From contig CBDCXM010000009.1 in the NCBI GenBank assembly GCA_965223855.1, forward strand, positions 320,001-384,000: 64,000 bases of DNA. The letters are read 5' to 3'. The position numbers and the translations under genes are program-made. This document shows, one piece after another, positions 4,621 through 56,268 of the stretch. Numbering within the stretch: position 1 is the stretch's first letter; the number at the start of each line of letters is the position of its first letter. This DNA is from Candidatus Multivoradales bacterium. GTDB taxonomy: Bacteria > Acidobacteriota > Thermoanaerobaculia > Multivoradales > JAHEKO01. The notes below the pieces were generated by a model. The model was given only the letters and a program-made list of their open reading frames with translations. It ran no database searches and was not told where the DNA came from.

Positions 4621-4640
4621 GACCCGGTCGGTCCCGGTTG

Positions 4641-6347
4641 CTACGGCGCGGGGTAGAGCGTCGGCGCCCCGGGACCGACCGGCAGGCCGAGCCCGAAGAC
4701 CCAGATGTAGAAGAGGATCATCCAGCCGATGAGGAAGGTCACCGAGTACGGCAGCATGGTGGCGATCATGGTGCCGATTCCGAGATCACGCCGGTACTTG
4801 ACCGCCATCGCCAGGATGAGACCGAAGTAGCTCATCATCGGGGTGATGATGTTGGTGGTCGAGTCGCCGATCCGGTAGGCGGCCTGGATCACCTCCGGGC
4901 TGTAGCCGATCGACATCAGCATCGGCACGAAGATCGGCGCCGTCACCGCCCACTGGGCGCTCGCGGAGCCGAGCATCAGGTTGACGAACCCGCACATCAG
5001 GATGAACGGGGCGAAGACCATCGGGTTGTCGAGTCGCATCGCCACCAGGGCGTCGGCGCCGAGCACCGCCAGGATGCGGCCGAGGCCCGAGTAGGCGAAG
5101 AACGACACGAACTGGGCGGCGAAGAACACCAGCACGATGTAAAGGCCCATGCTGCGCATCGCGCCGGCCATCGCGTGGATGACGTCGCGATCGTTCTTCA
5201 TCGAGCCGACGATGCGGCCGTAGACGAAGCCGGGGACGACGAAGAAGATCAGGATGAAGGAGACGACGCTGCGCAGGAGAGGCCGGAAGGCTTCGGGGCC
5301 GGCGGCGGTCGGGTCGGGGTTGCGCATCATGCCGAAGCCGGGGATCCAGTCGAGGAAGCTGAGGATCGCGGGGCCGGCGAGGATCACGATCCCGAACGCC
5401 ACCATCAGCGCGCTCAGGCCGGCGTAGCGCAGCGCCTTACGCTCGACGGCGGTGACCTCCTCCATCTCCGTGCGCTCTTCCAGGTCCTCGGAAGCCTCGC
5501 TCTCGTCGTACTCGCCCAGCCGTGGCTCGACGATCTTGGCCGTCACGTACCAGCCGATCGCCGTGATGACGAAGGTGCTCGCGATCATGAAATACCAGTT
5601 GACGGCCGGGTGGACCTCGTAGACAGGGTCGATCAGACGCGCCGCCTCCTCGGTGATGCCGGAGAGCAGTGGGTCGACGGTGCCGATCAGCAGGTTGGCG
5701 GAGTACCCACCGGAGACGCCGGCGAACGCCGCCGCCATGCCGGCCAGCGGATGCCTCCCAAGCGAGTGGAAGATCGCCATCGCCAGCGGGATCAGGACGA
5801 CGTACCCCATCTCGCTCGCCGTGTTGCTGACGATGCCGGCGAAGACGATCACCAGCGTGACGAGGTTCTTCGGCGCGCCCAGCACCAGCGCGCGGACGGC
5901 GGTCGTCAGCAGGCCGGAGCGCTCGGCGACCCCCACACCGAGGATCGCCACCAGCACCGTGCCGAGCGGCACGAAGCCGGTGAAGTTGGTCACCAGGTGC
6001 TGGAAGATCCAGCGGATGCCGTCGGCGGTCAAGAGACTGCTGACGGCGAAAATCTCACCCTCGTGACCGGGACGGGGGTCGTCGACCTGGAGGCCGAGCG
6101 CGGAAGTGATCGCCGAGAAGACGACGACGCCGAGCGCGAAGAGCGCAAACAGCGTGACCGGGTGAGGCAGCAGGTTGCCGAGCCATTCGACCGCGCCCAG
6201 CAGCCGGCCGACCCATCCGCTCGTCTCCTCCGGACGAGCGGACTTCTCGCCCGGTTTCTCCGCTTTCGGCGCGTCGTCGGAGGGCTCCGGTGCGGTCTCT
6301 CGTGTTTCCTCGGGCGTGTCCTTCGACTCAGGCGGTTCGGCGCTCAT
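4641..6347 (-). CDS. AbgT family transporter
   Basis: GNLLPHPVTLF, GRHPLAG, GGYSANLL, SASAQW, YRIGDSTTNIITP motifs; many TMs. Start at 6347 inferred. Confidence 0.92.
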   Translation of the reverse strand: MSAEPPESKDTPEETRETAPEPSDDAPKAEKPGEKSARPEETSGWVGRLLGAVEWLGNLLPHPVTLFALFALGVVVFSAITSALGLQVDDPRPGHEGEIFAVSSLLTADGIRWIFQHLVTNFTGFVPLGTVLVAILGVGVAERSGLLTTAVRALVLGAPKNLVTLVIVFAGIVSNTASEMGYVVLIPLAMAIFHSLGRHPLAGMAAAFAGVSGGYSANLLIGTVDPLLSGITEEAARLIDPVYEVHPAVNWYFMIASTFVITAIGWYVTAKIVEPRLGEYDESEASEDLEERTEMEEVTAVERKALRYAGLSALMVAFGIVILAGPAILSFLDWIPGFGMMRNPDPTAAGPEAFRPLLRSVVSFILIFFVVPGFVYGRIVGSMKNDRDVIHAMAGAMRSMGLYIVLVFFAAQFVSFFAYSGLGRILAVLGADALVAMRLDNPMVFAPFILMCGFVNLMLGSASAQWAVTAPIFVPMLMSIGYSPEVIQAAYRIGDSTTNIITPMMSYFGLILAMAVKYRRDLGIGTMIATMLPYSVTFLIGWMILFYIWVFGLGLPVGPGAPTLYPAP

Positions 6348-41144: not shown

Positions 41145-42545
41145 TCAGTCCCCCCGGGTCTCGCGCTCCTGGAAGCGCTCGGCGAGCGAGCGCAGGAAAC
41201 CGCTGACCCACGGCTTGATGGCGTCGAGCTCCTCGAGCAGCTGGTCGCGGCTGACCCGCTCGACGACCGTCTCTTCGAGCGTCACGACGCTCGCGGTGCG
41301 CGGCTCCGAGGTCATGATCGCCGTCTCGCCGAAGCACTCGCCCGGCCCGATGGTGCGGAGCGACACCTTCTCCCCGTCGATCTCCTTGAACACCTCGCAC
41401 GAGCCGCTGGCGATGATGTAGGCGTGCTCGCCGGGGTCCCCCTCCCGCATCAGCAGATGCCCCGCCTCGAAGGTCTCGAGCGGCAGGCTGCCGCCGCGCA
41501 TGAAGCCGACGATGTCCTGACGCAGCTCGACGACCGTCTGCTGCCTGTCCTCGGGTTTGCGCGCCATCGCTTTCTCGAGGATCCGCACCAGCTCGCGCGG
41601 TGCTCCGGCATCGTCCGGCAGCGGGGTGAAGTGGCGCTGGCGGGCCCGCAGGATCACCGTCTCGCTGGTGCGCCCCTCGTAGGGCGGCCGGCGGGCGACG
41701 AGGAAGTAGAGCATCGCGCCGACGGCGAAGATGTCCGCCCGGGCGTCCATCTCTCCCCCGGCCGCCTGCTCGGGCGACATGTAGCCCGGGGTACCGATGA
41801 CCCTCCGCCCCCAGATCCGGGTGAACGTGCTCGACACCGGGTCGTCGATCTTCGCCAGCTCGCCGTCGGGGTCCGCCAGCCTCGCCAGCCCCCAGTCGAC
41901 CAGGTAGACCTCGCCGAACTCCCCCACCATGACGTTCTCCGGCTTGACGTCGCGATGGACGACCCCTCGCTTGTGGGCGAAGGCGAGGGCGTTGCAGACC
42001 TTGACGACCACCTCCAGGAGGTCGAAGAGGGCGCCCCGCTCGATCGGCCCGGGCGGCAGCTCACGGACGAGCTCGGCGTAGGTCCGCCCCTCGAGGAGCT
42101 TCATCGTGAAGTGGAGCCGCCCGTCCTCGGTCCTTCCCAGATCGTGGACCGGCACGATGTTGGGATGCTGCAACTGACCGGTGATCTGAGCCTCCCTCAG
42201 GAACGACTGGACCGCCTGGCGTTCGTCCTCCATCTCCGTCCGCAAGAGCTTCCGCGCCAGCCGGCGCCTCAGGGTGCGGTCGTGCAGCAGCTCGACGATC
42301 GCCATCCCGCCGCTGCCGATCTCCTCGCCCGTCTCGAAGCGCTCCTCGTCAGGCGGCAGGACGTTGGCCACCAGATCCGCCTTCGCCCGTTCGTCGAGCC
42401 GTTCCGGGGGGTCGTCGCGGGAACCGAGGAGACGCTTGAACCAACCCTTCCGCGCACCGGAACCCTCCACGCGCGTCCCCTCGAGCACGGTCGCCGTACC
42501 GCCGTGTGTGCCCGATCCGGAACCGCTGGAGCGACCTTTCGTCAC
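41145..42545 (-). CDS. Cytoplasmic Ser/Thr kinase with C-terminal cyclic-nucleotide-binding domain
   Basis: IGSGGM, HPNIVP, HRDVKPEN, VDWG, GTPGYMSPEQ; CNB motifs EGDPG..AYII.SG and FGETAIMTSEPRTASV. Confidence 0.92.
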   Translation of the reverse strand: MTKGRSSGSGSGTHGGTATVLEGTRVEGSGARKGWFKRLLGSRDDPPERLDERAKADLVANVLPPDEERFETGEEIGSGGMAIVELLHDRTLRRRLARKLLRTEMEDERQAVQSFLREAQITGQLQHPNIVPVHDLGRTEDGRLHFTMKLLEGRTYAELVRELPPGPIERGALFDLLEVVVKVCNALAFAHKRGVVHRDVKPENVMVGEFGEVYLVDWGLARLADPDGELAKIDDPVSSTFTRIWGRRVIGTPGYMSPEQAAGGEMDARADIFAVGAMLYFLVARRPPYEGRTSETVILRARQRHFTPLPDDAGAPRELVRILEKAMARKPEDRQQTVVELRQDIVGFMRGGSLPLETFEAGHLLMREGDPGEHAYIIASGSCEVFKEIDGEKVSLRTIGPGECFGETAIMTSEPRTASVVTLEETVVERVSRDQLLEELDAIKPWVSGFLRSLAERFQERETRGD

Positions 42546-42648
42546 CGGCGAATCGTATCAACGGCTTCGCCCCACGACTGTGGCAAACGAGGCTTCTCTC
42601 GCGACCTGCGCCAGGTCGTCGTCTCCCCGTCTCGTAACATGGCCGACA

Positions 42649-44826
42649 GTGAAGAAACGAGCCAAGGCCGGGGCTCCGAGCGCCCTGCGCGACTGGGCGC
42701 CGGTGGGCCTTTCGCTGGTGCTCCTCGTCGCCGCTATCGTCGCGACGGTCGCCGAGCCGACCGCGATGACGACCCTGCGTCACGCGGCGTTCGACGCCTA
42801 CCAGCGCCTGCAGCCCCGCGAGTACCGGCCGGCCCCGGTGCGGGTGATCGACATCGACGAGGAGAGTCTCGACCGGCACGGCCAGTGGCCGTGGCCGCGG
42901 ACGACGCTCGCCACGTTGATCGAACGGCTCGACGAAGCCGGAGCGCGCTCGATCGCCCTCGACGTCATGCTCGCCGAGCCGGACCGCACCTCGCCACAGC
43001 TCGCGCTCGAGAGTTGGGCCGCGGACCCGGCCGTCCGGGACCTGGTGGCGCGCCTGCCCGATCACGACGAGGCTCTCGAGAAGAGGCTCGCCGCCTCGCC
43101 GGTAGTCACCGGCTTCATCCTCGATCAGGAGACCCAGGGAGAGACGCCGCTCGAGAAGGGGAGGATGGTGCTCGCCGGCGATCCGGCCGCCGCCTTCCTG
43201 CCGCCGTTTCGCGGTGCCGTCACCTCTCTGCGAGCGTTCGAGGCCGCGGCGGCGGGCAACGGTGCCCTCAACATGATCCCGAGCAACGACGGCATCGTCC
43301 GTCAGCTGCCCCTGTTGCTCGGCCACGGCGGAGCGGTGCGGCCCGGTCTGGCCGCCGAGGCTCTGCGGGTCGCCGAGGGCGCCGACAACTACGTCGTCAA
43401 GGCGTCGGGGGCGAGCGGCGAGGGGCGCTTCGGCGGCCGCACCGGCATTGTCAACGTGCGGATCGGCGACCTCGAGCCGATCGTCACCGACGCGCGCGGC
43501 GCTGTCTGGCTCCACTACTCGGACCCGGTCCCCGAGCGCACGCTCCCGGCCTGGAAGGTGCTGGCGGGCGACGTCCCGGAAGGCGCTCTCGAAGGGGGCA
43601 TCCTCTTCCTCGGCACCTCCGCCGCGGGCCTCCACGACCTGCGCCTCGACCCACTCGGCCGGATCGCCCCGGGAGCAGAGGTGCACGCCCAGGGGATCGA
43701 GCAGATCCTGCAGGGGACCTATCTGACGAGGCCCGACTGGGCGCGGGCGGCCGAGATCCTCTTCATGGTGGCGATGTGGTTCGTGCTCGTCGCGCTGATC
43801 CTGCGCTTCGGCGCGCTGCCGGCGGCGGTGATCGGCATCGCGACGATCGCCGCCGCCTACCTCGGCTCGTGGTTCGCTTTCGATCGTCTGCGGCTGCTGC
43901 TCGATCCAACCTTTCCCTCGCTGTCGGCGCTGTCGATCTACTTTGTCTGCTCGGTGGCGCAGCACTGGCGCGCGGAGCGCGATCGCACCTGGATCCGCGA
44001 CGCCTTCTCGAGCTATATCTCGCCCAATCTCGTCCGGCACCTGATCGACAACCCCGGCGATCTCGCTCTCGGCGGCGAGCGACGCGAGTGCAGCTTCGTG
44101 ATGACCGACCTCGAGTCGTTCACCACACTGGTCGAGAACCTCGAACCGACGGTCGCCGTCAGCCTGCTCAACGAGTACCTCGACGGCATCGTCGACATCG
44201 CGCTGGCGCGCGACGGCACCATCGACCGCATCGTCGGCGACGCGGTAGCGGTGATGTTCTCGGCGCCGGCGGTGCAGCCCGACCACGCCGAACGCGCCGT
44301 CGCCTGCGCCCTCGAGATCGACGCGTTCGCCCGGCGCTTCAGCGCCGCCAGGGGCGAGCAGGGGGTCGAGGTCGGGCGGACGCGGATCGGCGTCAACACG
44401 GGCGTCGTCACCGTCGGCAACGTCGGCGGCGACCGGATCGTCGACTATCGTGCCCTCGGCGATCCGGTCAACACGGCCGCACGCCTCGAGACGGTCAACC
44501 GACACCTCGGTACCAACGTCTGCGTGAGCGCGGCGACCGTCGCCGCCTGCCCCGACTTCCACGGCCGCCCGATCGGACGCCTCCTGCTCAAGGGGAAATC
44601 CGAGGCGGTCGAGGCGTTCGAGCCGCTGTCGCGGGAAGAGGCGGCGGGGGCTTCGAACACGGCCTATCTGCGGGCGTTCGCCCTGATGGAGGAGGAGGCG
44701 GCGGAGGCCCCCGCCGCCTTCGACCGACTGCGGCAGCAACACCCCGACGACCCCCTGGTCGCCCTCCACGCCGATCGCCTCGCCGCCGGCGAGACCGGCT
44801 CGACCATCGCCTTCTCCGAGAAGTAG
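42649..44826 (+). CDS. CHASE2-domain class III nucleotidyl cyclase
   Basis: IDIDEESL..HGQWPWPR, DGIVRQLP, PGAEVHAQ (CHASE2); three TMs; catalytic TDLESFT, DRIVGD, GVNTG, GDPVNTAARLE. GTG start at 42649 inferred. Confidence 0.92.
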   Translation: MKKRAKAGAPSALRDWAPVGLSLVLLVAAIVATVAEPTAMTTLRHAAFDAYQRLQPREYRPAPVRVIDIDEESLDRHGQWPWPRTTLATLIERLDEAGARSIALDVMLAEPDRTSPQLALESWAADPAVRDLVARLPDHDEALEKRLAASPVVTGFILDQETQGETPLEKGRMVLAGDPAAAFLPPFRGAVTSLRAFEAAAAGNGALNMIPSNDGIVRQLPLLLGHGGAVRPGLAAEALRVAEGADNYVVKASGASGEGRFGGRTGIVNVRIGDLEPIVTDARGAVWLHYSDPVPERTLPAWKVLAGDVPEGALEGGILFLGTSAAGLHDLRLDPLGRIAPGAEVHAQGIEQILQGTYLTRPDWARAAEILFMVAMWFVLVALILRFGALPAAVIGIATIAAAYLGSWFAFDRLRLLLDPTFPSLSALSIYFVCSVAQHWRAERDRTWIRDAFSSYISPNLVRHLIDNPGDLALGGERRECSFVMTDLESFTTLVENLEPTVAVSLLNEYLDGIVDIALARDGTIDRIVGDAVAVMFSAPAVQPDHAERAVACALEIDAFARRFSAARGEQGVEVGRTRIGVNTGVVTVGNVGGDRIVDYRALGDPVNTAARLETVNRHLGTNVCVSAATVAACPDFHGRPIGRLLLKGKSEAVEAFEPLSREEAAGASNTAYLRAFALMEEEAAEAPAAFDRLRQQHPDDPLVALHADRLAAGETGSTIAFSEK

Positions 44827-44827
44827 C

Positions 44828-45685
44828 TCAGCGCTCGGAGGCGGCTTCGATCCGCCGGGCCTGCTCGAGCTGCGCCTCGATGTTGGCGAGCCAGGCACGG
44901 CCGTCGGCGGTGCGCGCCAGGAGTTGCATCGCCGGCTCGCAGTAGCGCTGGACGATCTTCGAGAAGAAGTGCGGGAAGTCCGCTTCGAGGTCCCGCGGGC
45001 TACCGTAGCCGAGGCGTTCATTGACGCCCGTTTCCTCGAACTCGTAGTAGAGCGCCGGGTAGCGGCGGCGGGCGTGCGGCTCCGCCACCTGCCCGAGCAG
45101 ATCGGCGGCGCGCGCGAGCCCCGGGAGGTCTTCGACCTCCTGGTAGGCGTCCTTTTCGGGCACCGGGAAACGGGTCCGATCGATGCAGGCGGTCATCCGC
45201 TCGACGTCGAGCAGCGGATGGCTCGCGAATCGCTCGCAGACGAACTGGATGGCGCGATCGACGTGGTAAGGGCCGAGAGCGGCGTCGGTCGCCTCGAGGG
45301 GAAGCTCGACCACCGCGTCGCCGATCCCGGTCGCTCGGCGACCCGGGTCGTCACCGCGGCACAGATCCGGCACGTAACCGATGTCGTGGCACAGGAGCGA
45401 TGCGAGGACGTCCAGGCGATCGCAGGCCGGCACGGTTCCGCTCCGGTCGAGCCCTTCGAGGACCGCTTTGCCGACGAGGGTGACGAGCACCGTGTGGTGA
45501 GCGTTGTGGTAGAGCGCGTTGCACGAGGCCAGCCGCCCCAGCACCTCGACCGCGATCTCCCGCAGCGCGGCCGCATGCTCCCCCGCTTCGGGATCGGCCG
45601 CGAGAAAGCCCGCCTCCAGCCGCTCGGCGACGAGTTCGACGAGGGCGGCGGAAGGCTCGAACGATGGCGCCCCGCCGCCGATCAG
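44828..45685 (-). CDS. HD-superfamily metal-dependent phosphohydrolase, putative cyclic-nucleotide phosphodiesterase
   Basis: LYHNAHH, LCHDIGY, YHVDR, AADL motifs. The frame is open upstream of the GTG at 45544 to a CTG at 45685 that overlaps the ompA-family stop; start inferred. Confidence 0.78.
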   Translation of the reverse strand: MIGGGAPSFEPSAALVELVAERLEAGFLAADPEAGEHAAALREIAVEVLGRLASCNALYHNAHHTVLVTLVGKAVLEGLDRSGTVPACDRLDVLASLLCHDIGYVPDLCRGDDPGRRATGIGDAVVELPLEATDAALGPYHVDRAIQFVCERFASHPLLDVERMTACIDRTRFPVPEKDAYQEVEDLPGLARAADLLGQVAEPHARRRYPALYYEFEETGVNERLGYGSPRDLEADFPHFFSKIVQRYCEPAMQLLARTADGRAWLANIEAQLEQARRIEAASER

Positions 45686-46356
45686 CGCACCCTGACGACG
45701 ACCCTGCGATTCCGCGGTTCGCGCACCCCGTCTCCCGTCGGCACCGCCGGTTGCGATTCACCGAACGCCTCGATGGCGATCGCCGCTGCAGGGACACCGG
45801 CCTCGATCAGCCTGTCGCGCACCGCTTCGGCCCGTCGCCGCGACAGGCCGTCGTTGAGCGTCTCGGTCCCCGAAGTGTCGGTGTGACCGGCCACCCGGAT
45901 CGCCGCAGTCGCACGCTGTCGGAGGTCTTCGAGCAGCTCGTCCATCGCCCCGTCCGCCCCGCCCGCCAGCCGGGTCGTGCCGAGCTCGAAGAGGACGGTC
46001 CAGTCCGTCGGAGCGGGAGGCTCGTGCTCGATCGCCGGAGAAAAGCCGAGCTCGAGCCCGTCGACCTCCACCGTGCGGATGTCACTCAGATCGTCGAAGG
46101 AGACCGCCTCGTAGGCGGAGTCGAGCAGCGCGCTCTCGCCGTCGCGCGTCACTTCGATCGCGCCGACAGTGCCGTCCTCGTCGGGCAGCAGGACGACGTA
46201 CTGGCGCCATTCGGGCTCCTCCTCGACCGGCTCTTCGCCACCAAGGAGCGGCAGCACCACCGAGTCAGGCGGCCACCAGTGGACCGGCACCCGCTGCGCG
46301 GCACAACCTGGAAGCAGGAGAGCTCCGATCAGCACGACCGCCCGCGCTCGGTTCAT
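45682..46356 (-). CDS. OmpA-family peptidoglycan-binding lipoprotein
   Basis: Lipobox LPGC; VAGHTD..G....N..LS.RRA..V, FGESQP, NRRV. Confidence 0.92.
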   Translation of the reverse strand: MNRARAVVLIGALLLPGCAAQRVPVHWWPPDSVVLPLLGGEEPVEEEPEWRQYVVLLPDEDGTVGAIEVTRDGESALLDSAYEAVSFDDLSDIRTVEVDGLELGFSPAIEHEPPAPTDWTVLFELGTTRLAGGADGAMDELLEDLRQRATAAIRVAGHTDTSGTETLNDGLSRRRAEAVRDRLIEAGVPAAAIAIEAFGESQPAVPTGDGVREPRNRRVVVRVR

Positions 46357-46799
46357 TCGGCTGCGCTCTCCAACCTCACGAGAAATCGCGTGCCTCGGAT
46401 CCCGATCGTGCCGACCGGGGTCTCCACGTTCGCCGATTCGGGCGACAGCTTGGCGATCAGGCCGGAGACGTAGAGCAGCGTGCCGCGGGCGAGGCGGGAG
46501 AGGAACGCCCCCTCGCTCGCACCCGCCTCGTAGACGTACTCGTCGATCGTGAGACTGGTGTCGGGGCCGATCGACAGTCGGGAGTCGTCGATGAACAGCA
46601 CCCCCAGGGCGCCGTCGGATCCGGTCTCCAGGGTGTCGTCCTGGAACACCGCGGCGCCCAGCTCGGCAGCGCTGCGCTCCCCGCCCGACACGATGAAGGC
46701 ACTTCCACTCAACTCCTTGACGTGGCCGACGGGCTCGGACGCCGCGACGGCACCGGCCGAGAGGACCACGAGAACCAACCAGAGACGGCGATGCATCAC
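46353..46799 (-). CDS. Small periplasmic FecR-domain protein
   Basis: Signal peptide; D.LETG.DG...VLFIDDSRLSIGPDT, ETPVGTIGIRGT; 4-nt overlap with the ompA-family gene. Confidence 0.85.
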   Translation of the reverse strand: MMHRRLWLVLVVLSAGAVAASEPVGHVKELSGSAFIVSGGERSAAELGAAVFQDDTLETGSDGALGVLFIDDSRLSIGPDTSLTIDEYVYEAGASEGAFLSRLARGTLLYVSGLIAKLSPESANVETPVGTIGIRGTRFLVRLESAAE

Positions 46800-46925: not shown

Positions 46926-48737
46926 ATGGCAGATATGGCAGGTCACACCACAGGCCGCGTCCTCCTCGCCATCGCGCTCGTCGCGGTGATGGCGCCCGCT
47001 GCCTGGTCCCAGGAGGAGACGGCGCCGGTCCGCACCGCCGACGAGGAGCACGCGGCGCTCTTCCTCGAAGACCGCTTCCCGGCCGCCACGACCTGCGCCA
47101 CCTGTCACCCCGACCACTACCGCGAGTGGTCGGTGTCGCCGCACGCCTACGCGCAGATGAGCCCCGTTTTCAACGCCATGCACGGGACGATTCTCAAGCT
47201 GACCAACGGCACGAACGGCGACTTCTGCATCCGCTGCCACACGCCGGTGGGGATGAACCTCGGCGAGCCCGAGTTCATGAGCAACATGGACCGCCACCCG
47301 ACCTCGCGGGAAGGGGTCACCTGCATCGTCTGCCACCGGGTCAATCGCGCCTACGGCAAGCTCAGCGGACGGCTGGCGATCGTCGAGGGCGACGTCTTCG
47401 ACACCGTCTACGGACCGACCGGAGGCGAGGAGCTCGAGCGGGTGATCGACAGCTCCGAGTTTCGCGTCAACACCGAGCGGGGGCAGGCCGGGCGGGCGAT
47501 CCACGCCGAGGCGGAGCCGTTCTTCCAACTCCGAGAGGCGGGCATCTGCGGAACCTGCCACGACGTCAACCTGGTGAACGGCTTCCGTCTCGAGGAGGCG
47601 TTCAGCGAGTTCAAGACGTCACCGGCCGCGCGCCGGGGGGTGACGTGCCAGGACTGCCACATGGGGACGGAGCCGGGAATCGCCTCCGGGTTCCGCCAGG
47701 GGCCGGCGGCAATGATCGGCACCCGGCCGACCGCCGAGCGCCGGCTCACGAATCACATGTTCATCGGGCCGGATTACTCGATCGTCCACCCGGGGATCTT
47801 CCCGCACAACACCCGGGCCTCCGAACTGGCGACGATCCGCGACTGGCTCCAGTTCGACTGGGAAGCGGGCTGGGGCACCGACGCCTTCGAGCTCGAAGCG
47901 CCGGAGGACTACGAGTTCCCCGAGGTGTGGGCCTCCGCCGACGACCGCTACGACGCCCGCGACATCCTCGACGCCAACCTCACGCTGCTCGACGAGGCCA
48001 ACCAGGCGCGCCTCCAGCTGCTGCGCGCCGGTTACGTTCTCGGGGACACGAAGGTCGAGAAGAAGGGTCGCGGGCTCGCCTTCTCGATCGAAGTCCGCAA
48101 CGCCACCGACGGTCACGGCGTGCCGACCGGCTTCGACGCCGAGAGGCTCGTCTGGCTCGAAGTGACGGTCGCGGACGCGGACGGCGAGGTCGTCTTCCGC
48201 TCCGGCGATCTCGACCCGAACGGCGACGTGCGCGACCTGCACTCCCTCTACGTCCACAACGGCGAGCTGCCTCTCGACCGCTACCTCTTCAGCCTCCAGT
48301 CGAAGTTCCTGACCCGGATGGTGCGGGGCGGCGAGCGCGAGCAGGTGCTGGCGATCAACTACTCGCCCGACCCTCTGCCGTTCCTGCGACCCTCGGTCAC
48401 CTCGACGATCCTCACCGGGAGACCTCGCGGCGCCCGCAAGCACAAGCAGAACCTCGCTCCGCTCGGTCACCGCGTGGCGCGCTACGAGGTGCCGGCGGCC
48501 AAGCTCACCGGGCGCCCGCCGTACCGGGCCACGTTCCGGCTCAAGGCGGCGATGGTGCCGGTGAATCTGGTCCACGAAATCAAGGACGTCGGGTTCGACT
48601 ACTTCATGAGCGCTCGCGACGTCGCCGAGCGAGTGGTGGCAGGCCATCTCGTCCTCTGGGAACGACAGCTCGCCCTCGAAGACGGTGCCGAACCGCCCCA
48701 AGCCGAAGAAGCCGTGGATGCCGCCGCGTCGCCCTAG
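46926..48737 (+). CDS. Exported pentaheme cytochrome c (c554/c552-like)
   Basis: Signal peptide; CATCH, CIRCH, CIVCH, CGTCH, CQDCH; heme-free C-terminal half. Confidence 0.9.
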   Translation: MADMAGHTTGRVLLAIALVAVMAPAAWSQEETAPVRTADEEHAALFLEDRFPAATTCATCHPDHYREWSVSPHAYAQMSPVFNAMHGTILKLTNGTNGDFCIRCHTPVGMNLGEPEFMSNMDRHPTSREGVTCIVCHRVNRAYGKLSGRLAIVEGDVFDTVYGPTGGEELERVIDSSEFRVNTERGQAGRAIHAEAEPFFQLREAGICGTCHDVNLVNGFRLEEAFSEFKTSPAARRGVTCQDCHMGTEPGIASGFRQGPAAMIGTRPTAERRLTNHMFIGPDYSIVHPGIFPHNTRASELATIRDWLQFDWEAGWGTDAFELEAPEDYEFPEVWASADDRYDARDILDANLTLLDEANQARLQLLRAGYVLGDTKVEKKGRGLAFSIEVRNATDGHGVPTGFDAERLVWLEVTVADADGEVVFRSGDLDPNGDVRDLHSLYVHNGELPLDRYLFSLQSKFLTRMVRGGEREQVLAINYSPDPLPFLRPSVTSTILTGRPRGARKHKQNLAPLGHRVARYEVPAAKLTGRPPYRATFRLKAAMVPVNLVHEIKDVGFDYFMSARDVAERVVAGHLVLWERQLALEDGAEPPQAEEAVDAAASP

Positions 48738-48741
48738 GGGC

Positions 48742-50163
48742 TTGCTGAGGAACCCTCGTGGGTCGCGCGCCGGCCTCATCTTCGCCGCCGCGACGCTGAT
48801 GGCGACGGCGATCGGCGCCGCCGAGCCTCCCACCGAGGGAGACGGCGAGAGCGCGAGCCGCCTCACCGACGAGGCGATCCCACTGCAGGTCGATGCGGTA
48901 CCCGAGCGGCCGAAGCCGCCCCTCGAGCTCGGCGAACCGTTCCTCGGCACCGGCACCCTGCGCCCCGGCTTCCGACTGCCGACCGGCGCCGTGTGGCAGC
49001 CGGCGCTCGTCGCTTTCGGCTCCCTGAGGACCGCGGCCCAGAGCTTCGACTCCGGCGCCGGCAGGGTGAGCGAGCTCGTCGCCCGGTTGGACCTCTTCGC
49101 CAACCTTCAGCTCTCGGGAACGGAGCGCGTGGTCGTCGGCTTCCGGCCGCTCGACCGCGACGGTCGCTTCACCTCGTACGTCTTCTCGAGCGACGTCCCG
49201 GGGATCGAGGACGGGTCCCGCGACGAGTGGAACGGCGAGGTGACGAGCGTCTACTTCGAGGGAGACTTCGGCGAGATCTTCCCCAATCTCTCGAAGGACG
49301 ACTTCAGCCGCACCGACGTAGGTTTCTCGGCCGGCCGTCAGCCGCTGATCTTCCAGGAAGGGATGCTGATCAACGACTCGATCGACGGCATCGGGTTGAC
49401 CCGCAACACGCTTCAGCCGGGCAATCTGTCGAACTTCCGCGCCACGCTCTTCCTCGGCTTCGACGAGGTCGGCCGGCCCGACCGCATCGACGACGACGCG
49501 CGGCTCGTCGCGCTCCTGACCTCGACCGATACCAGGAGGTCGACCTGGGACGTCGATCTCGCGTGGGTGGAATCGCAGGTCGAGGGAGACCTCCTGGCCG
49601 GCGGGATCAGCGCGATTCAGAGACTCGGGCACTACAACACCGCGTTTCGACTGCTCGGCTCTTCAGCCCTCGACCGGGAAAGCGACCTCGTCTCCGACGG
49701 CTGGCTGCTGCTCAACGAGGTGTCGTGGACGCCGCACCACAGCCACGACCTCGTCTACGTCAACACCTTCGTCGCCGCCGACCGCTTCTCGTCCGCGGCG
49801 CGCGGGCCGAGCACCGGAGGCCCGCTCGGGCGCGCGGGCATCAACTTCGCTGCCGTCGGGCTGGGCAACTACGGCGCGGCGCTGAGCTCGGAGGCCGAGG
49901 ACGTCGCCGGCGCGGCGGTCGGCTACCAGCGCTTCTTCGATCACACCCGCAAGCAGCTCCTCGTCGAGGCTGGCGCGCGTCTCGGCACCCGTTCCGGGAG
50001 CGCCGACTCCGCCGCCGTCACCGTGCGGTTTCAGACCGCGCTCAAGCGCCACTACGTGCTGGTGCTCGATGCCTTCGGCGGCTACCGCGACCCGGGACCC
50101 GCAGCACCCGGCGGCCGGCAGGAGCTACTCGGTGCGCGGGTCGAACTGGTGACGAAGTTCTGA
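48742..50163 (+). CDS. Putative outer-membrane beta-barrel protein
   Basis: Signal-like N-terminus, alternating hydrophobic beta-strands, C-terminal ARVELVTKF with terminal Phe. TTG start inferred. Confidence 0.72.
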   Translation: MLRNPRGSRAGLIFAAATLMATAIGAAEPPTEGDGESASRLTDEAIPLQVDAVPERPKPPLELGEPFLGTGTLRPGFRLPTGAVWQPALVAFGSLRTAAQSFDSGAGRVSELVARLDLFANLQLSGTERVVVGFRPLDRDGRFTSYVFSSDVPGIEDGSRDEWNGEVTSVYFEGDFGEIFPNLSKDDFSRTDVGFSAGRQPLIFQEGMLINDSIDGIGLTRNTLQPGNLSNFRATLFLGFDEVGRPDRIDDDARLVALLTSTDTRRSTWDVDLAWVESQVEGDLLAGGISAIQRLGHYNTAFRLLGSSALDRESDLVSDGWLLLNEVSWTPHHSHDLVYVNTFVAADRFSSAARGPSTGGPLGRAGINFAAVGLGNYGAALSSEAEDVAGAAVGYQRFFDHTRKQLLVEAGARLGTRSGSADSAAVTVRFQTALKRHYVLVLDAFGGYRDPGPAAPGGRQELLGARVELVTKF

Positions 50164-52202
50164 TGGCGGCCGCCCGCCTCCTCGGCCCGGCGGTGGCCGG
50201 TCTGCTCGCGATCGGCCCGGTGGCGGCGGCCGAGACCCCGGCGGCGCGCGACCCGGCGAAGATCGTCACCGCCGAGGCGTGCGGCGAGTGCCATCTCGAG
50301 GAGTTCGAGGTGTGGAAGACGACGCCTCACGCACTCGGCTTCAAGTCGCTCCACCGCAGCGCCGACGCTGAAGAGATCGCGCGCAAGATGGGTCATCGGC
50401 TCATCAAGCGCGACAGCCCCTGCCTCGAATGTCACTACACGACGGCACTCGACGGCGAGCGCGAACGCGCGGTGTCGGGAGTGTCGTGCGAGTCGTGCCA
50501 CGGCGCCGGCCGCGACTGGATCGAGGTACACAACGACTACGGCCCCGACGCCACCTTCGCCACCGAGACCGACGCCCACCGCGAGCAGCGAATCGCCGCC
50601 AGCCGAGCGGCCGGGATGCTGCGGCCGACCGACCTCTACGAGGTGGCCGCCAACTGCTTCGGCTGCCACACGGTGCCCAACGAGGAGCTCGTCAACGTCG
50701 GCGGCCACACGACGGGCAGCATCGGCTTCGAGCTGGTCGAGTGGTCGCAGGGCGAGATCCGGCATAACTTCGTCGCGGCGCAGCGGGGCGGGAGCAAGGA
50801 GAACGTCGAGCGCTCCGACGAGCGCAAGCGGCTGATGTACGTCGTCGGCCGATCGCTCGAGCTCGAGTACGCGCTGCGCGGACTCGCCAAAGCGACCGAG
50901 GACGGGGCCTACGCGAAGTCGATGATCCGCAAGGTTCGCAACGCGGTTGCCGAGGTCGGCGACATCGCGGCGGTCACGACCCTCGCGCCGGTCAACACCA
51001 TGACCGCCGCGGTGCGCGAAGCCCGGGTCAGCCAGGGGAACGCAGCCGAGCTGCTGGCCGCCGCCGATCGGGTGAGCGCGGCGACCAGAGCGCTGCTCCG
51101 GGAGCCGGCCGGCGCGCAGGTGGCGGCCCTCGATCCTCTGAGACTCGGCCAGCCGCTCCCGGGGACGGATCAACTCGCCGAGGACGAGCGCGAGGGCCTC
51201 GAGGACCCCGTCGAGGGCGCGGCCGAGACCGTCCCGGCGGCCGTCGCCGCGGCGGCCGCACCCGGAGAGCCCGGCGCCACCACCGCCGGCGCCGGCAGCG
51301 GTCGGAGCGTGCCCGACTACGCTCGCAAGACCCGGCTGCGACCGACCTCGCCGCACCGCACGATCGACGCCGGCGCGTGCAGCGGCTGCCACGAGGAGCA
51401 GAACGCCTGGTGGTTCGACGACCCTCACTACGCCGCCGCCGAGCCGTTTCACGAGGGCGATCCGAAGAACGCCCAGATCGCCCGGCTCTACGGGCTCGCG
51501 GCCGGCGAGGCGACCAGGGGAAACCAGCTGTGCATGGACTGTCACGGCACGGTCGTCACCGGCAAGGAGCGCCGCGAAGTGTGGGACGGGGTGAGCTGCC
51601 AGAGCTGCCACGGTGGCGCCGCCGACTACCTCGAGCCGCACAAGGAAGGGGACGAGACGGCCGGAGATCAGCGCAGCGGCTACCTCGCCGCACTCGGTCT
51701 CGGCATGAAGGAGCTGCGTCGTCCCGAGGTGCGGGCGCGCAACTGCGCGAGCTGCCACTACATCACCGACCCGCGTCTGATCTCCGCCGGGCACCCGACC
51801 GGCAGGGACTTCCGGATCGTCGAGCGGATGCCGCGGATTCGCCACTGGGAGCGGGCCGATCTCGACGCCTCCGCCCTCGAGAGCGCCTTCCGCGACGAGG
51901 TGGCACGGCGAGGAGCGATTCCCGAGGTTGTCCTCGCCTCGCTGCCGGCGGGAGAGTCGCCGCTCGCCGCCGCTGCGACGGCGACGCGGACCCGCCGCGC
52001 GGGAGGGGGCTCCCGCCCCGTCAGAGCCCTGCCGCCGCGACAGCGACCGGTCGATCCGATCGCCATCCCGGACCCTGCGAGCGTCGGCCCGCTCGACCTC
52101 CCCCCCTTCGACCCTCCGGCGGACGACGCGCCGCTCGAGGAGGTCCTGGCGCTGATTCAGCAGCGACTCGCCCTCATCTACGAAAACGTTCAGGAGCCGT
52201 GA
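50163..52202 (+). CDS. Exported octaheme cytochrome c (two tandem tetraheme c554-like domains)
   Basis: ATG overlaps the upstream TGA; CGECH, CLECH, CESCH, CFGCH / CSGCH, CMDCH, CQSCH, CASCH. Confidence 0.9.
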   Translation: MAAARLLGPAVAGLLAIGPVAAAETPAARDPAKIVTAEACGECHLEEFEVWKTTPHALGFKSLHRSADAEEIARKMGHRLIKRDSPCLECHYTTALDGERERAVSGVSCESCHGAGRDWIEVHNDYGPDATFATETDAHREQRIAASRAAGMLRPTDLYEVAANCFGCHTVPNEELVNVGGHTTGSIGFELVEWSQGEIRHNFVAAQRGGSKENVERSDERKRLMYVVGRSLELEYALRGLAKATEDGAYAKSMIRKVRNAVAEVGDIAAVTTLAPVNTMTAAVREARVSQGNAAELLAAADRVSAATRALLREPAGAQVAALDPLRLGQPLPGTDQLAEDEREGLEDPVEGAAETVPAAVAAAAAPGEPGATTAGAGSGRSVPDYARKTRLRPTSPHRTIDAGACSGCHEEQNAWWFDDPHYAAAEPFHEGDPKNAQIARLYGLAAGEATRGNQLCMDCHGTVVTGKERREVWDGVSCQSCHGGAADYLEPHKEGDETAGDQRSGYLAALGLGMKELRRPEVRARNCASCHYITDPRLISAGHPTGRDFRIVERMPRIRHWERADLDASALESAFRDEVARRGAIPEVVLASLPAGESPLAAAATATRTRRAGGGSRPVRALPPRQRPVDPIAIPDPASVGPLDLPPFDPPADDAPLEEVLALIQQRLALIYENVQEP

Positions 52203-52203
52203 C

Positions 52204-53838
52204 GTGAGCGAGCCGTTCGAACCGGGCAAGACCGTGCTCAAGCAGATCGAGCAGTACGGCGACCGCTGGAGCGCCTACGGCGCGAGCGAGAGCATCGTCT
52301 CGATCTCCGACAGGCTCACCCTCGAGGAGATGAGGGAGATCGACGTCTTCTCCGACTACGACGACTCGTTCCTCGAGAAGATCCGCTCCGACGTCTCGGT
52401 GGCGGTGTGGAAGCCGGACTCGGTGCTGTTCGAGGAAGGGAGCTACATCGACCTCGCCTTCGTCGTCCTCGAGGGAGAGGTCGAGACCTTCGTCGCCGGG
52501 ATCGGCAAGGGTGAAGCGACGCCGCAGCCGATCTTCGACGCCACACGCACCGTGCTGGGCGACGCCGAGACCACCCTGGCGGCCGAGCGCACCACACTGA
52601 TGCCGACGCTCTCGCCGCCGAGGCGGGCGCCGAAGGAGATCACGCTCCTCGCTTCGATGGACTTCGACATGCCGCGCGAAGGCACCGTGAGACTCGGCCC
52701 CGGCGAGGTGTTCGGCGAGATCGGCGCCCTGAGCGGCTGGCCTCAGTCGGTGACGGCACGGACCGTGACCGAGTGCCGTCTGGTGCAGATCCGGATCAAC
52801 GCGCTCAGGCTGATGAAGCGCAAGTCCGCGGCACTCAAGGAGCGCCTCGACGAGCGCTACCGCGAGCGCTCGCTGAGCGCGCAGCTGCGGACGACGCCGC
52901 TCCTGAGGCGCTCGAGCCCGCTGGTGATCGAGGCGCTCAAGGACGAGGTCGAGCTCGTCTCCTGCGAGCCGGGAGAGACGGTGCTCACCCACGGCGACGA
53001 GCCCGACGCGCTCTATCTGGTGCGCTCCGGCTTCCTCAAGCTGCTGCAGCCGCTGGCCGACGGTCAGATCGCCGTCTCGTACCTGTCGAAGGGGATGACC
53101 CTCGGCGAGGCGGAGCTGCTGCTGCCCGAGATCGACGGCTGGCAGGTCAGCGCCGAATCGGTCGAGTACAGCGAGCTGGTGCGGATCCCGGCACCGGTCT
53201 TCGACAATCTCCTGCGCAACGAGCCGCTGATCGAAGCCGATCTTTGGGCGTCGGCTCAGGAGCGCATCCGCGAGTCCGGCTTCGCGCGGCGGCACATCGG
53301 TCACGCGGAGTTCCTCCAGGAGGCGCTCGACACCGGGCTCGTTCAGGGCAACAGCATCCTGGTGATCGACCTCGAATCCTGCACCCGATGCGACGACTGC
53401 GTGCGCGCCTGTGCCGACACGCACGAGGGGCGCCCCCGCTTCGTGCGCGAGGGAGACAAGTACGCCAACCTCCTGATCGCCAAGTCCTGCTACCACTGCC
53501 GGGATCCGGTCTGTCTCGTCGGCTGCCCGACCGGCGCGATCCATCGCGCCGGGCTGAGCGATGTCGTCGAGATCGAAGACGAAATCTGTATCGGCTGCGC
53601 GAGCTGTTTCCGCAACTGCCCGTACGACGCGATCGTCATGCACGAGACCGGCGACCTGTGGCCGGACGACATGATCCCGGTCGGGCTGCGAGGGCGCGAT
53701 CGCCAGGTCGCCAGCAAGTGCGACCTTTGTGCCGACACCGGTCACGGGCCGGCGTGTGTCAGCAACTGCCCTCAGGGTTGCGCCTACCGGGTCGGATCGC
53801 TGGAGGAGTTCCAACGGCTGATGAGCGGGGAGAGCTAG
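52204..53838 (+). CDS. Tandem cNMP-binding-fold domains fused to a DmsB/NrfC-type 4x[4Fe-4S] ferredoxin
   Basis: LFEEGS..DLAFVVLEG / LGPGEVFGE; HGDEPDALYLVRSG / GMTLGE; CTRCDDCVRAC, CYHCRDPVCLVGCP, CIGCASCFRNCP, KCDLC..GPACVSNCP. Confidence 0.92.
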   Translation: MSEPFEPGKTVLKQIEQYGDRWSAYGASESIVSISDRLTLEEMREIDVFSDYDDSFLEKIRSDVSVAVWKPDSVLFEEGSYIDLAFVVLEGEVETFVAGIGKGEATPQPIFDATRTVLGDAETTLAAERTTLMPTLSPPRRAPKEITLLASMDFDMPREGTVRLGPGEVFGEIGALSGWPQSVTARTVTECRLVQIRINALRLMKRKSAALKERLDERYRERSLSAQLRTTPLLRRSSPLVIEALKDEVELVSCEPGETVLTHGDEPDALYLVRSGFLKLLQPLADGQIAVSYLSKGMTLGEAELLLPEIDGWQVSAESVEYSELVRIPAPVFDNLLRNEPLIEADLWASAQERIRESGFARRHIGHAEFLQEALDTGLVQGNSILVIDLESCTRCDDCVRACADTHEGRPRFVREGDKYANLLIAKSCYHCRDPVCLVGCPTGAIHRAGLSDVVEIEDEICIGCASCFRNCPYDAIVMHETGDLWPDDMIPVGLRGRDRQVASKCDLCADTGHGPACVSNCPQGCAYRVGSLEEFQRLMSGES

Positions 53839-53841
53839 GCC

Positions 53842-54672
53842 TTGACTCACCGCCACCGCAGCGCGCGCCGGTCGAGGGCGGCCGTGATCGCGGCCTCCGT
53901 CGCCGCGCTCGCAGTGGTCGTCTACGTCGGCGGCGCGACCCTGTGGGAGGTGGCTCCGGGAACTCCGTTGAGCATCGGCTTCGGTGTCGCGGCGGCGATC
54001 CTCCTTCTCGGGGCAGCCCTCTACGGCGCGCGGCGGCGACTCGTACGCCTCGCCTCGCGACGCAGCCTCGGGACAGCCTCGAGCTGGCTCGCCTTTCATC
54101 TCTACGGCAGCCTCCTCTTCCTGCTGCTCGTGCACCTCCACTCCGGCTTCGCCGTTCCGAGCGAAGGGGTGACCTGGTGGCTGTGGGCACTCTCCTGGTG
54201 GACGGTCGTCACGGGGGTCGCCGGTCGGCTGCTGCAACTGTGGATCCCCAGAGCGCTCGGCTCGGGCCTGTCGGTGGAGGTGCTCTACGAGCGCATCCCC
54301 GAGCTGATCGAGGAGCTGCGCGAACGGTCGGAGACTCTCGCCGCCACTTGCGACGAGTCGGTGCAGAATCTCTACTCCAACCAGGTGGCGAAGCAGCTCA
54401 CGGGGCCGAGGCGCCGCTGGATCTACTTCGTCGATCCGGCCGGCGGAGCGCGGTCGCAACTGCGTGAGTTCGACTACCTGCGCACGATGCTGCCGCCGGA
54501 GGAGCAGGACAAACTCGATCGACTGGCGGGGTACCTGCGCACGAAGCTCGAATTCGACGCTCACTACACCCTGCAGGGAGTGCTGCGCTCGTGGCTGTGG
54601 ATCCACGTCCCGCCGTCGCTGGCGGTGCTCGCCCTGGTCATCGTCCACGTCTTCGCGGTCACCTACTACTGA
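53842..54672 (+). CDS. Five-TM membrane protein, putative di-heme cytochrome b
   Basis: Two helices each carry a His pair 14 residues apart: FHLYGSLLFLLLVHLH and IHVPPSLAVLALVIVH. Confidence 0.75.
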   Translation: MTHRHRSARRSRAAVIAASVAALAVVVYVGGATLWEVAPGTPLSIGFGVAAAILLLGAALYGARRRLVRLASRRSLGTASSWLAFHLYGSLLFLLLVHLHSGFAVPSEGVTWWLWALSWWTVVTGVAGRLLQLWIPRALGSGLSVEVLYERIPELIEELRERSETLAATCDESVQNLYSNQVAKQLTGPRRRWIYFVDPAGGARSQLREFDYLRTMLPPEEQDKLDRLAGYLRTKLEFDAHYTLQGVLRSWLWIHVPPSLAVLALVIVHVFAVTYY

Positions 54673-54687
54673 TGGCGGACTCACACG

Positions 54688-56268
54688 ATGGCGGCTAAGC
54701 GTCGGCAGGGGAAGGGCTCCTACGGCCGCTGGCAACTGCCGGTGGCGAGGCGCTATCTCGTCCCGGGGTCGAGGGGGCGTCGGATGGTCCTGGCGGCCGC
54801 GCTCTTCGCGCTCATCCTGGCCGCGGTGGCGGCAGACTTCCGGCTGCGGCGCGGCAAGGCGCTCTCCAAGGGCGCGCTGTCGTCGCACCACGCCCTCCAG
54901 GAGCAGGACTGCGCCTCCTGCCACGTCGAGTTCGATGCGGTGAGCGACGACCGCTGCTCCTCGTGCCACGAGAAGTTCGGCGATCAGCTCGGCGTCTACA
55001 CCTTCGCCGCTCACTACCTGTACCGGTCGACCGACTTCCAGCGCGTCGTCGCCTCGGAACACGAGCTGCCGTGCTCCTCCTGCCATCTCGAGCACGCGGG
55101 GCGCGAAGCTCAGATCACCCGCGTACCGGATTCGCGCTGTCTCGACTGTCACGAATACGGCGCCTTCGGCGACGACCACCCGGAGTTCGCCTTCGCGCGG
55201 GAGGAGGCCGCCGAGGCGGGCGGCCTGCACTTCCCTCACATCGAGCACATTCGCGAAGTGATGGCGCAGCAGAACCTGCACGACGTCGAGCGGTCGTGCC
55301 TCTACTGTCATCGGCCGGAGGCGGACGGGCGCTCGTTCCAGCCGATCGAGTTCGATCTCCATTGCGACTCCTGCCACCTCACGACGACTACGGCGACGCC
55401 GCGGCTGCCGATCGCAGGAGAGGCGGGCGAGGAGGATGGTCCCGGAGTCGAGACGCTGGAAGCAATCCGCGCTCGCGGCGGCCCGGGCACGGAGTGGGCC
55501 TACTACACGAACCCCAACGAGTTCCGCCGCACCGGGCCGCGGATCCTCAAGTCGCCGCTGCATCACGAGGATCCATGGATTCTCGACAACCTGCGCCGGC
55601 TGCGGCGCGAGCTCTATCCCGACGCCGGGCTCGCCGACCTCCTGACCGCCTCCCCCGATGCCCCGGTGCATCGATTGAGCGAGGTCTACGGCGAGGCGAT
55701 CGCCACCCTGCAGTCACAGGTCGACGGCCTGCGTGCCCGCCCCGAGCCGGAGATCCAACGTGACCTCGCGAAGCTCTCCGCGCTCCTGACCGAGGCGGAG
55801 CGGAGCCTCCTCGATCCCTATACCCCCCTCGACGAGACCGAGTTCCAGCTCGCCCTCGAGCGACCCGATCCGAATCTGTCGGCGGAGCAAGTCGACTCGA
55901 TCGACCGCCTCGCCGACGAGCTGACGACGCCGTGCCGCCAGTGCCACATCGTCGAGAACGCCACCCTCGCCCGGGTCCAGACCGATCAGCGGACTCTCCT
56001 GAGCGCCGAGTTCGACCACCGCGCCCACATCCTCCAGCGGCGCTGTCTCGACTGCCATCGCGAGATCCCCGTACTCGAGCACCTGAACTCCCCCGAGCCG
56101 GTCGATCCCGCGATCGACAACGCCGGCATTCACAACCTGCCGCGCATCGAAGCGTGCCGGGAGTGCCACCAGCCGCGCCAGGTCTCGGACCGCTGCGTCA
56201 CCTGCCACGTCTTTCATCCGGACAAGAACCGGCGATCGGAACTGCTGCTCTACCTGGAGACCGGCTGA
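54688..56268 (+). CDS. Membrane-anchored decaheme cytochrome c (c3-like)
   Basis: N-terminal TM; CASCH, CSSCH x2, CLDCH x2, CLYCH, CDSCH, CRQCH, CRECH, CVTCH; distal-His motifs FPHIEH and FDHRAH. Confidence 0.9.
   Translation: MAAKRRQGKGSYGRWQLPVARRYLVPGSRGRRMVLAAALFALILAAVAADFRLRRGKALSKGALSSHHALQEQDCASCHVEFDAVSDDRCSSCHEKFGDQLGVYTFAAHYLYRSTDFQRVVASEHELPCSSCHLEHAGREAQITRVPDSRCLDCHEYGAFGDDHPEFAFAREEAAEAGGLHFPHIEHIREVMAQQNLHDVERSCLYCHRPEADGRSFQPIEFDLHCDSCHLTTTTATPRLPIAGEAGEEDGPGVETLEAIRARGGPGTEWAYYTNPNEFRRTGPRILKSPLHHEDPWILDNLRRLRRELYPDAGLADLLTASPDAPVHRLSEVYGEAIATLQSQVDGLRARPEPEIQRDLAKLSALLTEAERSLLDPYTPLDETEFQLALERPDPNLSAEQVDSIDRLADELTTPCRQCHIVENATLARVQTDQRTLLSAEFDHRAHILQRRCLDCHREIPVLEHLNSPEPVDPAIDNAGIHNLPRIEACRECHQPRQVSDRCVTCHVFHPDKNRRSELLLYLETG

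Follow-up and report, generated by a model that had tools for sequence, protein, structure and literature searches.

Base choice in class III nucleotidyl cyclases is usually read from two residues of the catalytic domain, and genome annotation depends on this rule; the accessible text of one study names Lys-Asp, Glu-Cys, and Glu-Gly as substrate-binding pairs (PMC4215837). The best solved relative of the protein described here is Cya2 from Synechocystis PCC 6803, a CHASE2-regulated guanylate cyclase that has the pair Glu/Gly and makes cyclic GMP (cGMP), and the available part of the report on it states that the exchange E488K by itself converts it into an adenylate cyclase (PMC5995499). We analyzed a stretch of 64,000 nucleotides from Candidatus Multivoradales bacterium (Acidobacteriota; assembly GCA_965223855.1, contig CBDCXM010000009.1, positions 320,001 to 384,000), referred to below as the window, in which a gene at 42649..44826 on the forward strand encodes a cyclase with arginine at both of these positions. 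Judged from its sequence, the protein belongs to the class III cyclases and to the CHASE2 receptor cyclases and carries neither the adenylate nor the guanylate signature. The explanation we put forward, to which we give about an even chance, is that it would be an active CHASE2 receptor cyclase whose rebuilt Arg/Arg pocket has moved its selectivity off strict use of ATP.

Domain Layout, Catalytic Residues, and the Two Arginines

The frame of the cyclase gene is open from 42274, and all residue numbers refer to the translation from that position (P0001). With the divergent kinase gene filling the region up to 42545, translation most likely begins at GTG 42649, and the open reading frame (ORF) called from there encodes 725 amino acids. 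The layout is the usual one for receptor cyclases: a first hydrophobic segment (about residues 12-37 of the 725-residue protein; hydropathy scan) lies ahead of a CHASE2 periplasmic sensor domain (42730..43785, residues 153-504; PF05226, 179.6 bits, E 1.1e-52), and a hydrophobic membrane-spanning block (43738..43968; hydropathy scan) leads from the sensor to the class III nucleotidyl cyclase domain (44086..44604, residues 605-777), all on the forward strand. The score of the latter against PF00211 (Guanylate_cyc), 60.1 bits versus a curated cut-off of 21.9, places the protein in class III. A conserved C-terminal extension past the cyclase core (44605..44823) is covered by homologue matches that span query positions 1-278, and the equivalent extension of Cya2 is required for activity according to the accessible text on that enzyme (PMC5995499).

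The four catalytic residues of class III cyclases are all intact. The first metal-binding Asp, D612 in MTDLES (44107..44109), is Asp in 121/121 and 150/150 sequences of the two homologue sets described below; the second, D656 in DRIVGD (44239..44241), is placed by structure alignments and by the same sets; and the transition-state Asn/Arg pair in VNTAAR (44470..44484) runs from N733 (44470-44472) to R737 (44482-44484). All four are invariant in the 127/127 Arg/Arg sequences that we compared. The initial annotation, made from the sequence letters, had proposed an intact receptor cyclase with both metal Asp residues and an intact N-x3-R pair, and the domain scores and residues just given agree with it; every motif it quoted lies in frame in the ORF at 42274-44826 (+).

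Residue-by-residue HMMER alignments to solved structures place R652 (44227..44229, codon CGC, in DRIVGD) and R726 (44449..44451, codon CGT, in DYRALGD) at the first and second base-specifying positions (site 1 and site 2), where the initial annotation had expected them. R652 stands opposite the Glu of Cya2 (2W01, GTIDEFMGD) and opposite the Lys of the Cya2 E488K variant (6FHT), of CyaB (3R5G), and of CyaC (1WC1), and R726 stands opposite the Gly of Cya2 and the Thr of CyaB and CyaC. Since E488K alone switches Cya2 from GTP to ATP, the first Arg occupies the base-choice position of the closest solved relative. The protein thus has Arg and Arg in place of the adenylate signature (Lys, then Asp, Thr, or Ser) and of the guanylate signature (Glu, then Cys, Gly, or Ser). 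Bicarbonate-responsive class IIIb adenylate cyclases carry a Thr marker at the second specificity position, which is occupied here by R726. Because both base-selecting residues are arginine, the nucleotide is not readable from known rules.

Cya2 has the same architecture, with CHASE2, a membrane block, a cyclase core, and a C-terminal extension, as described in the open portion of its report (PMC5995499), and shares the metal Asp and the Asn/Arg residues; its structure 2W01 is matched at E 3.5e-27 and the engineered fusion 6FHT at E 1.7e-29. It differs in its pair and product, and the Arg/Arg protein has in addition the clade set C606, A659, S663, V712, and L728. CyaB of Pseudomonas aeruginosa (E 1.2e-23) and CyaC of Spirulina (E 2.7e-16) are solved homodimers whose motifs align column for column with those of the Arg/Arg protein, but they have Lys/Thr and other sensor domains. 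Lys/Thr CHASE2 adenylate cyclases of the class IIIb type, which form the sister clade, share architecture and length and are 44-59% identical in the catalytic half, and they have Met/Leu, His, Gly/Asn, Ala, and His where the Arg/Arg clade has Cys, Ala, Ser, Val, and Leu. The CHASE2 cyclase encoded on pSymB of Sinorhizobium meliloti has the pair Lys/Ser and shares a FecR neighbor with the Arg/Arg protein, and for the rhizobial CHASE2 cyclases CyaD1, CyaD2, and CyaK the accessible text reports cyclic AMP (cAMP) raised on an outside signal (PMC13001267). We also considered GcyA of Rhodospirillum centenum as a relative and rejected it as a different type, with Ala at a specificity position and conservation with XC_0250 in the available part of the source (PMC3770947).

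An Arg/Arg Subfamily across Several Phyla

We examined the pair in the 120 closest full-length homologues (set 1, 121 sequences including the query) and in the 150 nearest cluster representatives at 50% identity, found with the catalytic half as query (set 2). Arg/Arg is present in 90/121 sequences of set 1, beside Lys/Thr in 26, Lys/Arg in 4, and Asn/Arg in 1; set 2 contains Lys/Thr in 98/150, Arg/Arg in 38, and other pairs or an altered metal site in 14. A scan of named genomes, which used peptide patterns from the query protein and is biased toward its own clade, gave 50 aligned loci, with Arg/Arg at 41, Arg/Ala at 3 (Rhodocyclaceae), Ser/Arg at 1, and Lys at site 1 in 5 outgroup loci. Carriers among these named genomes come from Acidobacteriota, Desulfobacteraceae, Alphaproteobacteria (Magnetospirillum), Betaproteobacteria (Rhodoferax, Gallionella, and Rhodocyclaceae), and Gammaproteobacteria (Thiotrichales and Methylococcaceae), and include a cultured one, Magnetospirillum sulfuroxidans J10 (locus L049).

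The 41 Arg/Arg loci span 48.7-73.1% GC and use five different Arg codons at one site and four at the other, and because the pair is kept over this range with several synonymous codons, it is the amino acid that is selected, not the base composition. This bears on a reading in which the pair reflects neutral drift in a GC-rich genome, or an inactive enzyme in decay. The window has 68.4% GC and Arg codons are GC-rich, as drift would have it, yet the pair is retained at the lowest GC content found, the catalytic residues are invariant, the frame is intact, and orthologues 63-66% identical to the protein occur in three relatives; we consider drift or decay very improbable.

In a FastTree tree of 181 rows, from which the two specificity columns had been removed, all 63 Arg/Arg rows fall inside one 70-row set with a support of 97. 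We also built a quick IQ-TREE tree of 71 rows from representatives of at least 600 residues (the first 30 Arg/Arg sequences, 30 random Lys/Thr sequences, and the other pairs), a set that additionally took in P0021, P0023, P0035, and P0086. A split with an SH-aLRT of 96 separates 37 rows (30 Arg/Arg, 4 Lys/Arg, 2 Lys/Thr, and 1 Arg/Ser) from 34 rows (29 Lys/Thr, 2 Arg/Thr, and 1 each of Asn/Thr, Thr/Thr, and Lys/Ser). The Arg/Arg clade is, on the evidence of these trees, sister to the Lys/Thr CHASE2 cyclases and set apart by a well-supported branch.

Comparison of 127 Arg/Arg with 125 Lys/Thr sequences reveals that at least five further positions of the catalytic domain co-vary with the pair. 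Position 606, which lies six residues N-terminal of D612 (C606, 44089..44091), is Cys in 126/127 Arg/Arg sequences versus mostly Met, Leu, Val, or Ile in Lys/Thr sequences; position 659 is Ala in 117/127 versus mostly His or Val; position 663 is Ser in 126/127 versus mostly Gly or Asn; position 712 is Val in all 127/127 versus mostly Ala; and position 728 is Leu in 122/127 versus mostly His. Position 610, two residues before the first metal Asp, is Leu, Met, or Phe in the Arg/Arg sequences versus Phe in 121/125 of the Lys/Thr ones. The Arg/Arg sequences make up a large and conserved subfamily of receptor cyclases that extends over several phyla and, with Arg as both base-selecting residues, lies beyond the two-residue rule. 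The literature that we searched, which left most subscription papers and supplements outside its scope, contains no description of an Arg/Arg class III cyclase.

Class III Cyclases in the Host Genome and Its Relatives

The host genome (4.52 Mb, 92.5% complete) contains one PF00211 match only, the Arg/Arg cyclase, and a search of it for a class I cyclase found none; it also encodes one CYTH protein and has 11 matches to cyclic-nucleotide-binding (CNB) domains, in about 10 proteins. We searched 40 relatives with the catalytic half and stored 30 best-match loci; of these loci from same-order relatives, 29 were aligned. The best match has Arg/Arg in 4 relatives (G000, G001, G003, and G021), Lys/Thr in 22 (one of these rows is the unpublished genome G005), and Glu/Gly in 3. 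By this split, the lineage has three alternative signatures, Arg/Arg being the apparent third next to those for adenylate and guanylate cyclases. The Glu/Gly best matches, in G007 (L151), G023 (L150), and G028 (L149), are Cya2-like and are predicted to be guanylate cyclases. G000 (92% complete) and G003 (93%) each have a single class III cyclase match, which in both is the Arg/Arg enzyme, and orthologues of the gene are patchy within the lineage.

Proposed Function and Nucleotide Product

We propose that the protein would act as an active, homodimeric, membrane-bound receptor cyclase whose periplasmic CHASE2 domain controls the cytoplasmic class III catalytic domain; the products of two adjacent genes, the OmpA-like lipoprotein and the secreted FecR-domain protein, probably take part in sensing. 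It would convert a nucleoside triphosphate into the 3',5'-cyclic monophosphate, which would be read by CNB proteins such as the adjoining kinase. The base pocket would have been rebuilt with the two arginines, R652 and R726, together with C606, A659, S663, V712, and L728, and we take this rebuilding to shift nucleotide selectivity away from strict use of ATP. What the data show are the domain layout, the complete set of catalytic residues, the placement of the two arginines, the co-varying clade, and the linkage to CNB and FecR genes; what we infer are the dimer, the partners in sensing, and a possible switch of substrate. Since no second class III cyclase was found in the genome and CNB genes adjoin this one, the enzyme almost certainly makes a 3',5'-cyclic nucleoside monophosphate. 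The likeliest single main product is cAMP, at somewhat less than an even chance; cyclic UMP (cUMP) or cyclic CMP (cCMP) is a tentative candidate, cGMP is an unlikely one, and a broad or other product is about as unlikely as cGMP or slightly less so.

The same enzyme could be a plain adenylate cyclase, in which Arg652 takes over from Lys as the donor to adenine N1, and Arg726 either stacks on the base or contacts its N7. What the co-varying residues would then do is merely accommodate two long side chains, and the subfamily signature would reflect regulation, or epistasis after one substitution, with no new substrate. We regard this as a serious contender that falls a little short of being probable, and a number of observations speak for it and so weigh against a change in selectivity. 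Lys/Arg variants with the full clade pocket sit inside the Arg/Arg clade (4/121 in set 1 and 3/150 in set 2); in the IQ-TREE tree P0021, a Lys/Thr sequence that has Cys606, Ser663, and Val712, groups within the clade as the sister of a Lys/Arg one; and the Arg/Ala of the three Rhodocyclaceae loci (L020, L026, and L030) and the Ser/Arg of L042 occur together with C606, A659, S663, and L728. Because these forms occur in the clade, the site-1 Arg is interchangeable with Lys and neither Arg is indispensable. To judge from the tree, the canonical adenylate pair can return on an Arg/Arg-clade backbone, and the Lys/Arg, Lys/Thr, and Arg/Ala variants provide the chief reason to suspect that ATP is still the substrate. 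Furthermore, E488K suffices in Cya2 with Gly at site 2, as given in the accessible text (PMC5995499), so ATP use does not depend on the site-2 residue.

At three of the co-varying positions the side chain becomes smaller (Met or Leu to C606, His to A659, and Phe to Leu or Met at 610). Mycobacterial cyclases with odd pairs, such as Rv1900c and Rv0386, are still mainly adenylate cyclases. The putative receptors look canonical as well: the neighboring CNB domains have ordinary phosphate-binding cassettes (G-E...R-S/T-A), which are uninformative on the base. In the relative G022 the orthologue of the adjoining kinase, 54% identical, stands beside a Gln/Leu cyclase. The host genome encodes about 10 CNB proteins, and the Arg/Arg enzyme is the sole class III cyclase found there. 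Where relatives of the neighboring HD-family gene lie near cyclases elsewhere, these have Lys/Thr, Lys/Thr, and Gln/Thr.

Plain adenylate activity is harder to reconcile with the loss of an acceptor at site 2, where Thr or Asp takes a hydrogen bond from adenine N6 and an Arg should be unable to do so, and with the near-invariance of the pair and five further positions over several phyla. Relatives needing cAMP or cGMP signatures, moreover, carry Lys/Thr or Glu/Gly. If the Arg/Arg pair selects ATP, it adds a third route to that choice and refines the two-residue rule; if it does not, CHASE2 sensors of free-living bacteria would feed a housekeeping signal carried by cGMP or a cyclic pyrimidine. 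Ready-made receptor candidates are encoded by the CNB genes linked to the cyclase.

A guanylate cyclase, in which the two arginines would read O6 and N7 on the Hoogsteen edge of guanine, seems unlikely to us. An Arg-O6/N7 contact is reported for cGMP in PucTIR, and a basic site-2 residue contacts guanine in the modeled PucC, both in the accessible text of the same preprint (bioRxiv 10.64898/2026.08.12.744502), and bacterial guanylate cyclases without the Glu/Cys pair exist, for example, XC_0250 (PMC3770947, available part). Nevertheless, the adenylate state of Cya2 is the one with a cation at site 1, where E488K moves the enzyme from GTP to ATP (PMC5995499), and a Cya2-like Glu/Gly cyclase is already present in the same-family relatives G007 and G023 and in G028 of the same order. 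The site-1 cation disfavors GTP, though a Hoogsteen reading by Arg is possible.

Comparison with Pycsar Cyclases

The initial annotation had pointed to an Arg before xxGD in Pycsar uridylate cyclases and suggested a cyclic pyrimidine used outside phage defense. The accessible text on PycC enzymes (PMC11224242) gives F100, R142, and Q144 as the CTP-specifying residues of EaPycC, a cytidylate cyclase with metal Asp residues D102 and D146, and for uridylate cyclases it names Y50, D94, and R97 (BcPycC) and F60, K104, and F109 (AnPycC). By numbering rather than alignment, EaPycC R142 would be the equivalent of R652, both lying four residues before the second metal Asp, and F100 the equivalent of position 610; the two enzymes are alike in their class III fold and in the spacing of the metal Asp residues, which are 44 residues apart in both (PMC11224242). 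An Arg at this spot thus has its counterpart, by numbering, in a cytidylate cyclase, and the initial annotation is only partly right on this point; the Arg named in the same text for a uridylate cyclase is R97. We count the EaPycC precedent for an Arg at site 1 in favor of a changed base.

That the protein is itself a Pycsar-type anti-phage pyrimidine cyclase is hardly credible. PADLOC models of PycC match the catalytic domain (best E 3.4e-15, 54 bits) and PaPycC (6YII) is a weak match among solved structures (E 0.0015), but 54 bits is no better than the 60.1 bits of the generic Pfam family. PycC enzymes are soluble, have an N-terminal helix as their hallmark, and work with a TIR or membrane effector, whereas this protein is a membrane receptor with CHASE2 and membrane segments, and it stands in a conserved context of FecR, OmpA, HD, and kinase-CNB proteins. 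Family and PADLOC scans of the neighbors found no PycTIR or PycTM effector beside the cyclase. We rejected Pycsar membership on the adjacent genes and the membrane-receptor layout.

A role outside phage defense, as first suggested, is supported by the lack of a Pycsar effector among the scanned neighbors and by the sensory and periplasmic nature of those present. It is doubtful, though conceivable, that Arg/Arg CHASE2 cyclases make cUMP or cCMP as an ordinary environment-sensing messenger outside phage defense. If they did, the messenger would be read by the adjoining CNB kinases, patatin-like lipases, and small CNB proteins, and cyclic pyrimidine signaling would extend beyond phage defense in Acidobacteriota, Desulfobacterota, and Alpha-, Beta-, and Gammaproteobacteria.

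Candidate Cyclic-Nucleotide Receptors

ORFs with CNB domains occur in the flanks of 15 of the 45 clade loci, and all of those scanned (8/8) match PF00027. Phospholipases that combine tandem CNB domains, an NTE P-loop, and a patatin domain adjoin the cyclase at two Acidobacteriota loci (L002, 10344-12593, and L003, 2435-4666); the clade flanks also contain a CNB-FliG_C protein, small CNB proteins just downstream of the cyclase in Rhodoferax, and, at Magnetospirillum-type loci, proteins of roughly 390 residues with a C-terminal CNB domain. In the window, the candidate receptor is the product of the divergent gene (41145..42545 on the minus strand), a Ser/Thr protein kinase of 466 residues that ends in a CNB domain, at about residues 345-466 (PF00069 131 bits, PF00027 83 bits). 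Among the relatives searched, orthologues of this kinase were found only in G022 and G029, so it is not tied to Arg/Arg. At the G022 locus (L177, 2262-7944), the neighbors of the kinase orthologue are a CNB-GGDEF protein and a Gln/Leu cyclase of 1082 amino acids with a long C-terminal region.

We further compared a CRP-like regulator of the host (L179), which has single orthologues in 23/40 relatives, or in 24/41 genomes when the host is included (L184-L207). Its cassette and C-helix are nearly identical in Arg/Arg, Lys/Thr, Glu/Gly, and Gln/Leu genomes and in G006, G016, and G020, which have no class III cyclase match with this query. Because Lys/Thr and Glu/Gly genomes do not differ from each other either, the comparison is without discriminating power.

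Neighboring Genes

Three genes on the minus strand lie head to tail and point at the end of the cyclase gene. They encode a secreted FecR-domain protein (46353..46799; family scan and locus comparisons), a conserved companion of CHASE2 genes; an OmpA-like peptidoglycan-binding lipoprotein (45682..46356; family scan); and an HD-domain metalloprotein of the Npun_R2479 family (PF28239; 44828..45544), which is convergent with the cyclase and a weak candidate for a phosphodiesterase. In tblastn searches of 51 cyclase loci, FecR relatives adjoin the cyclase in 23, OmpA relatives in 13, and the HD gene in 6, and clustering of flank ORFs gives a FecR cluster in 26/46 sources and, at 11 further loci that are mostly of the Rhodoferax type, a LysM-FecR cluster. 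The Lys/Ser CHASE2 cyclase of S. meliloti pSymB likewise has a FecR-domain neighbor, and CHASE2 kinase operons have LysM-FecR partners in the accessible text of another study (PMC5192318), so the FecR link is general to CHASE2 sensors and not specific to Arg/Arg. These gene neighborhoods suggest a partnership of FecR-domain proteins with CHASE2.

We considered the HD-family protein as a dedicated phosphodiesterase and rejected it as evidence on the product; it stays a weak candidate for that activity. In the reverse direction, a cyclase lies nearby in 3/80 metagenome loci of the HD family (47 of them at least 4 kb), none with Arg/Arg. The protein scores E 0.21 against Pfam PDEase_I, and a search of solved structures with a profile of the family found no relative. 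The HD gene is called at 238 amino acids, and its homologues have about 280. A conserved N-terminus (SFEPSAALVELV..., corresponding to MFEP... in relatives) runs in frame upstream of the called start at 45545-45700 (-), a stretch that contains no ATG, GTG, or TTG for this gene and extends to the stop of the OmpA-like gene, which points to a nonstandard start codon or a miscalled start.

A LysM-FecR protein of about 450 amino acids and a very large protein (median 1168 amino acids) flank the Arg/Arg cyclase at 11 loci of the Rhodoferax type, L019 among them; reading the sequence by eye, we take the N-terminus of the large protein to resemble a two-partner-secretion domain of the hemagglutinin type. 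The CHASE2 cyclase of S. meliloti Ak57 pSymB (L053, 3698-6102) is split between the frames 3698-5867 and 5421-6102, which overlap, and is absent from the gene table of that record, where it may be frameshifted. Beyond the FecR gene, the window contains a cluster of large multihaem cytochrome genes at 46926-56268 (+), encoding proteins of 603, 1069, and 526 amino acids. Within this cluster, at 52204-53838, a 544-residue protein has tandem CNB domains fused to 4Fe-4S ferredoxin domains, a fusion that hints at cyclic-nucleotide control of electron transfer.

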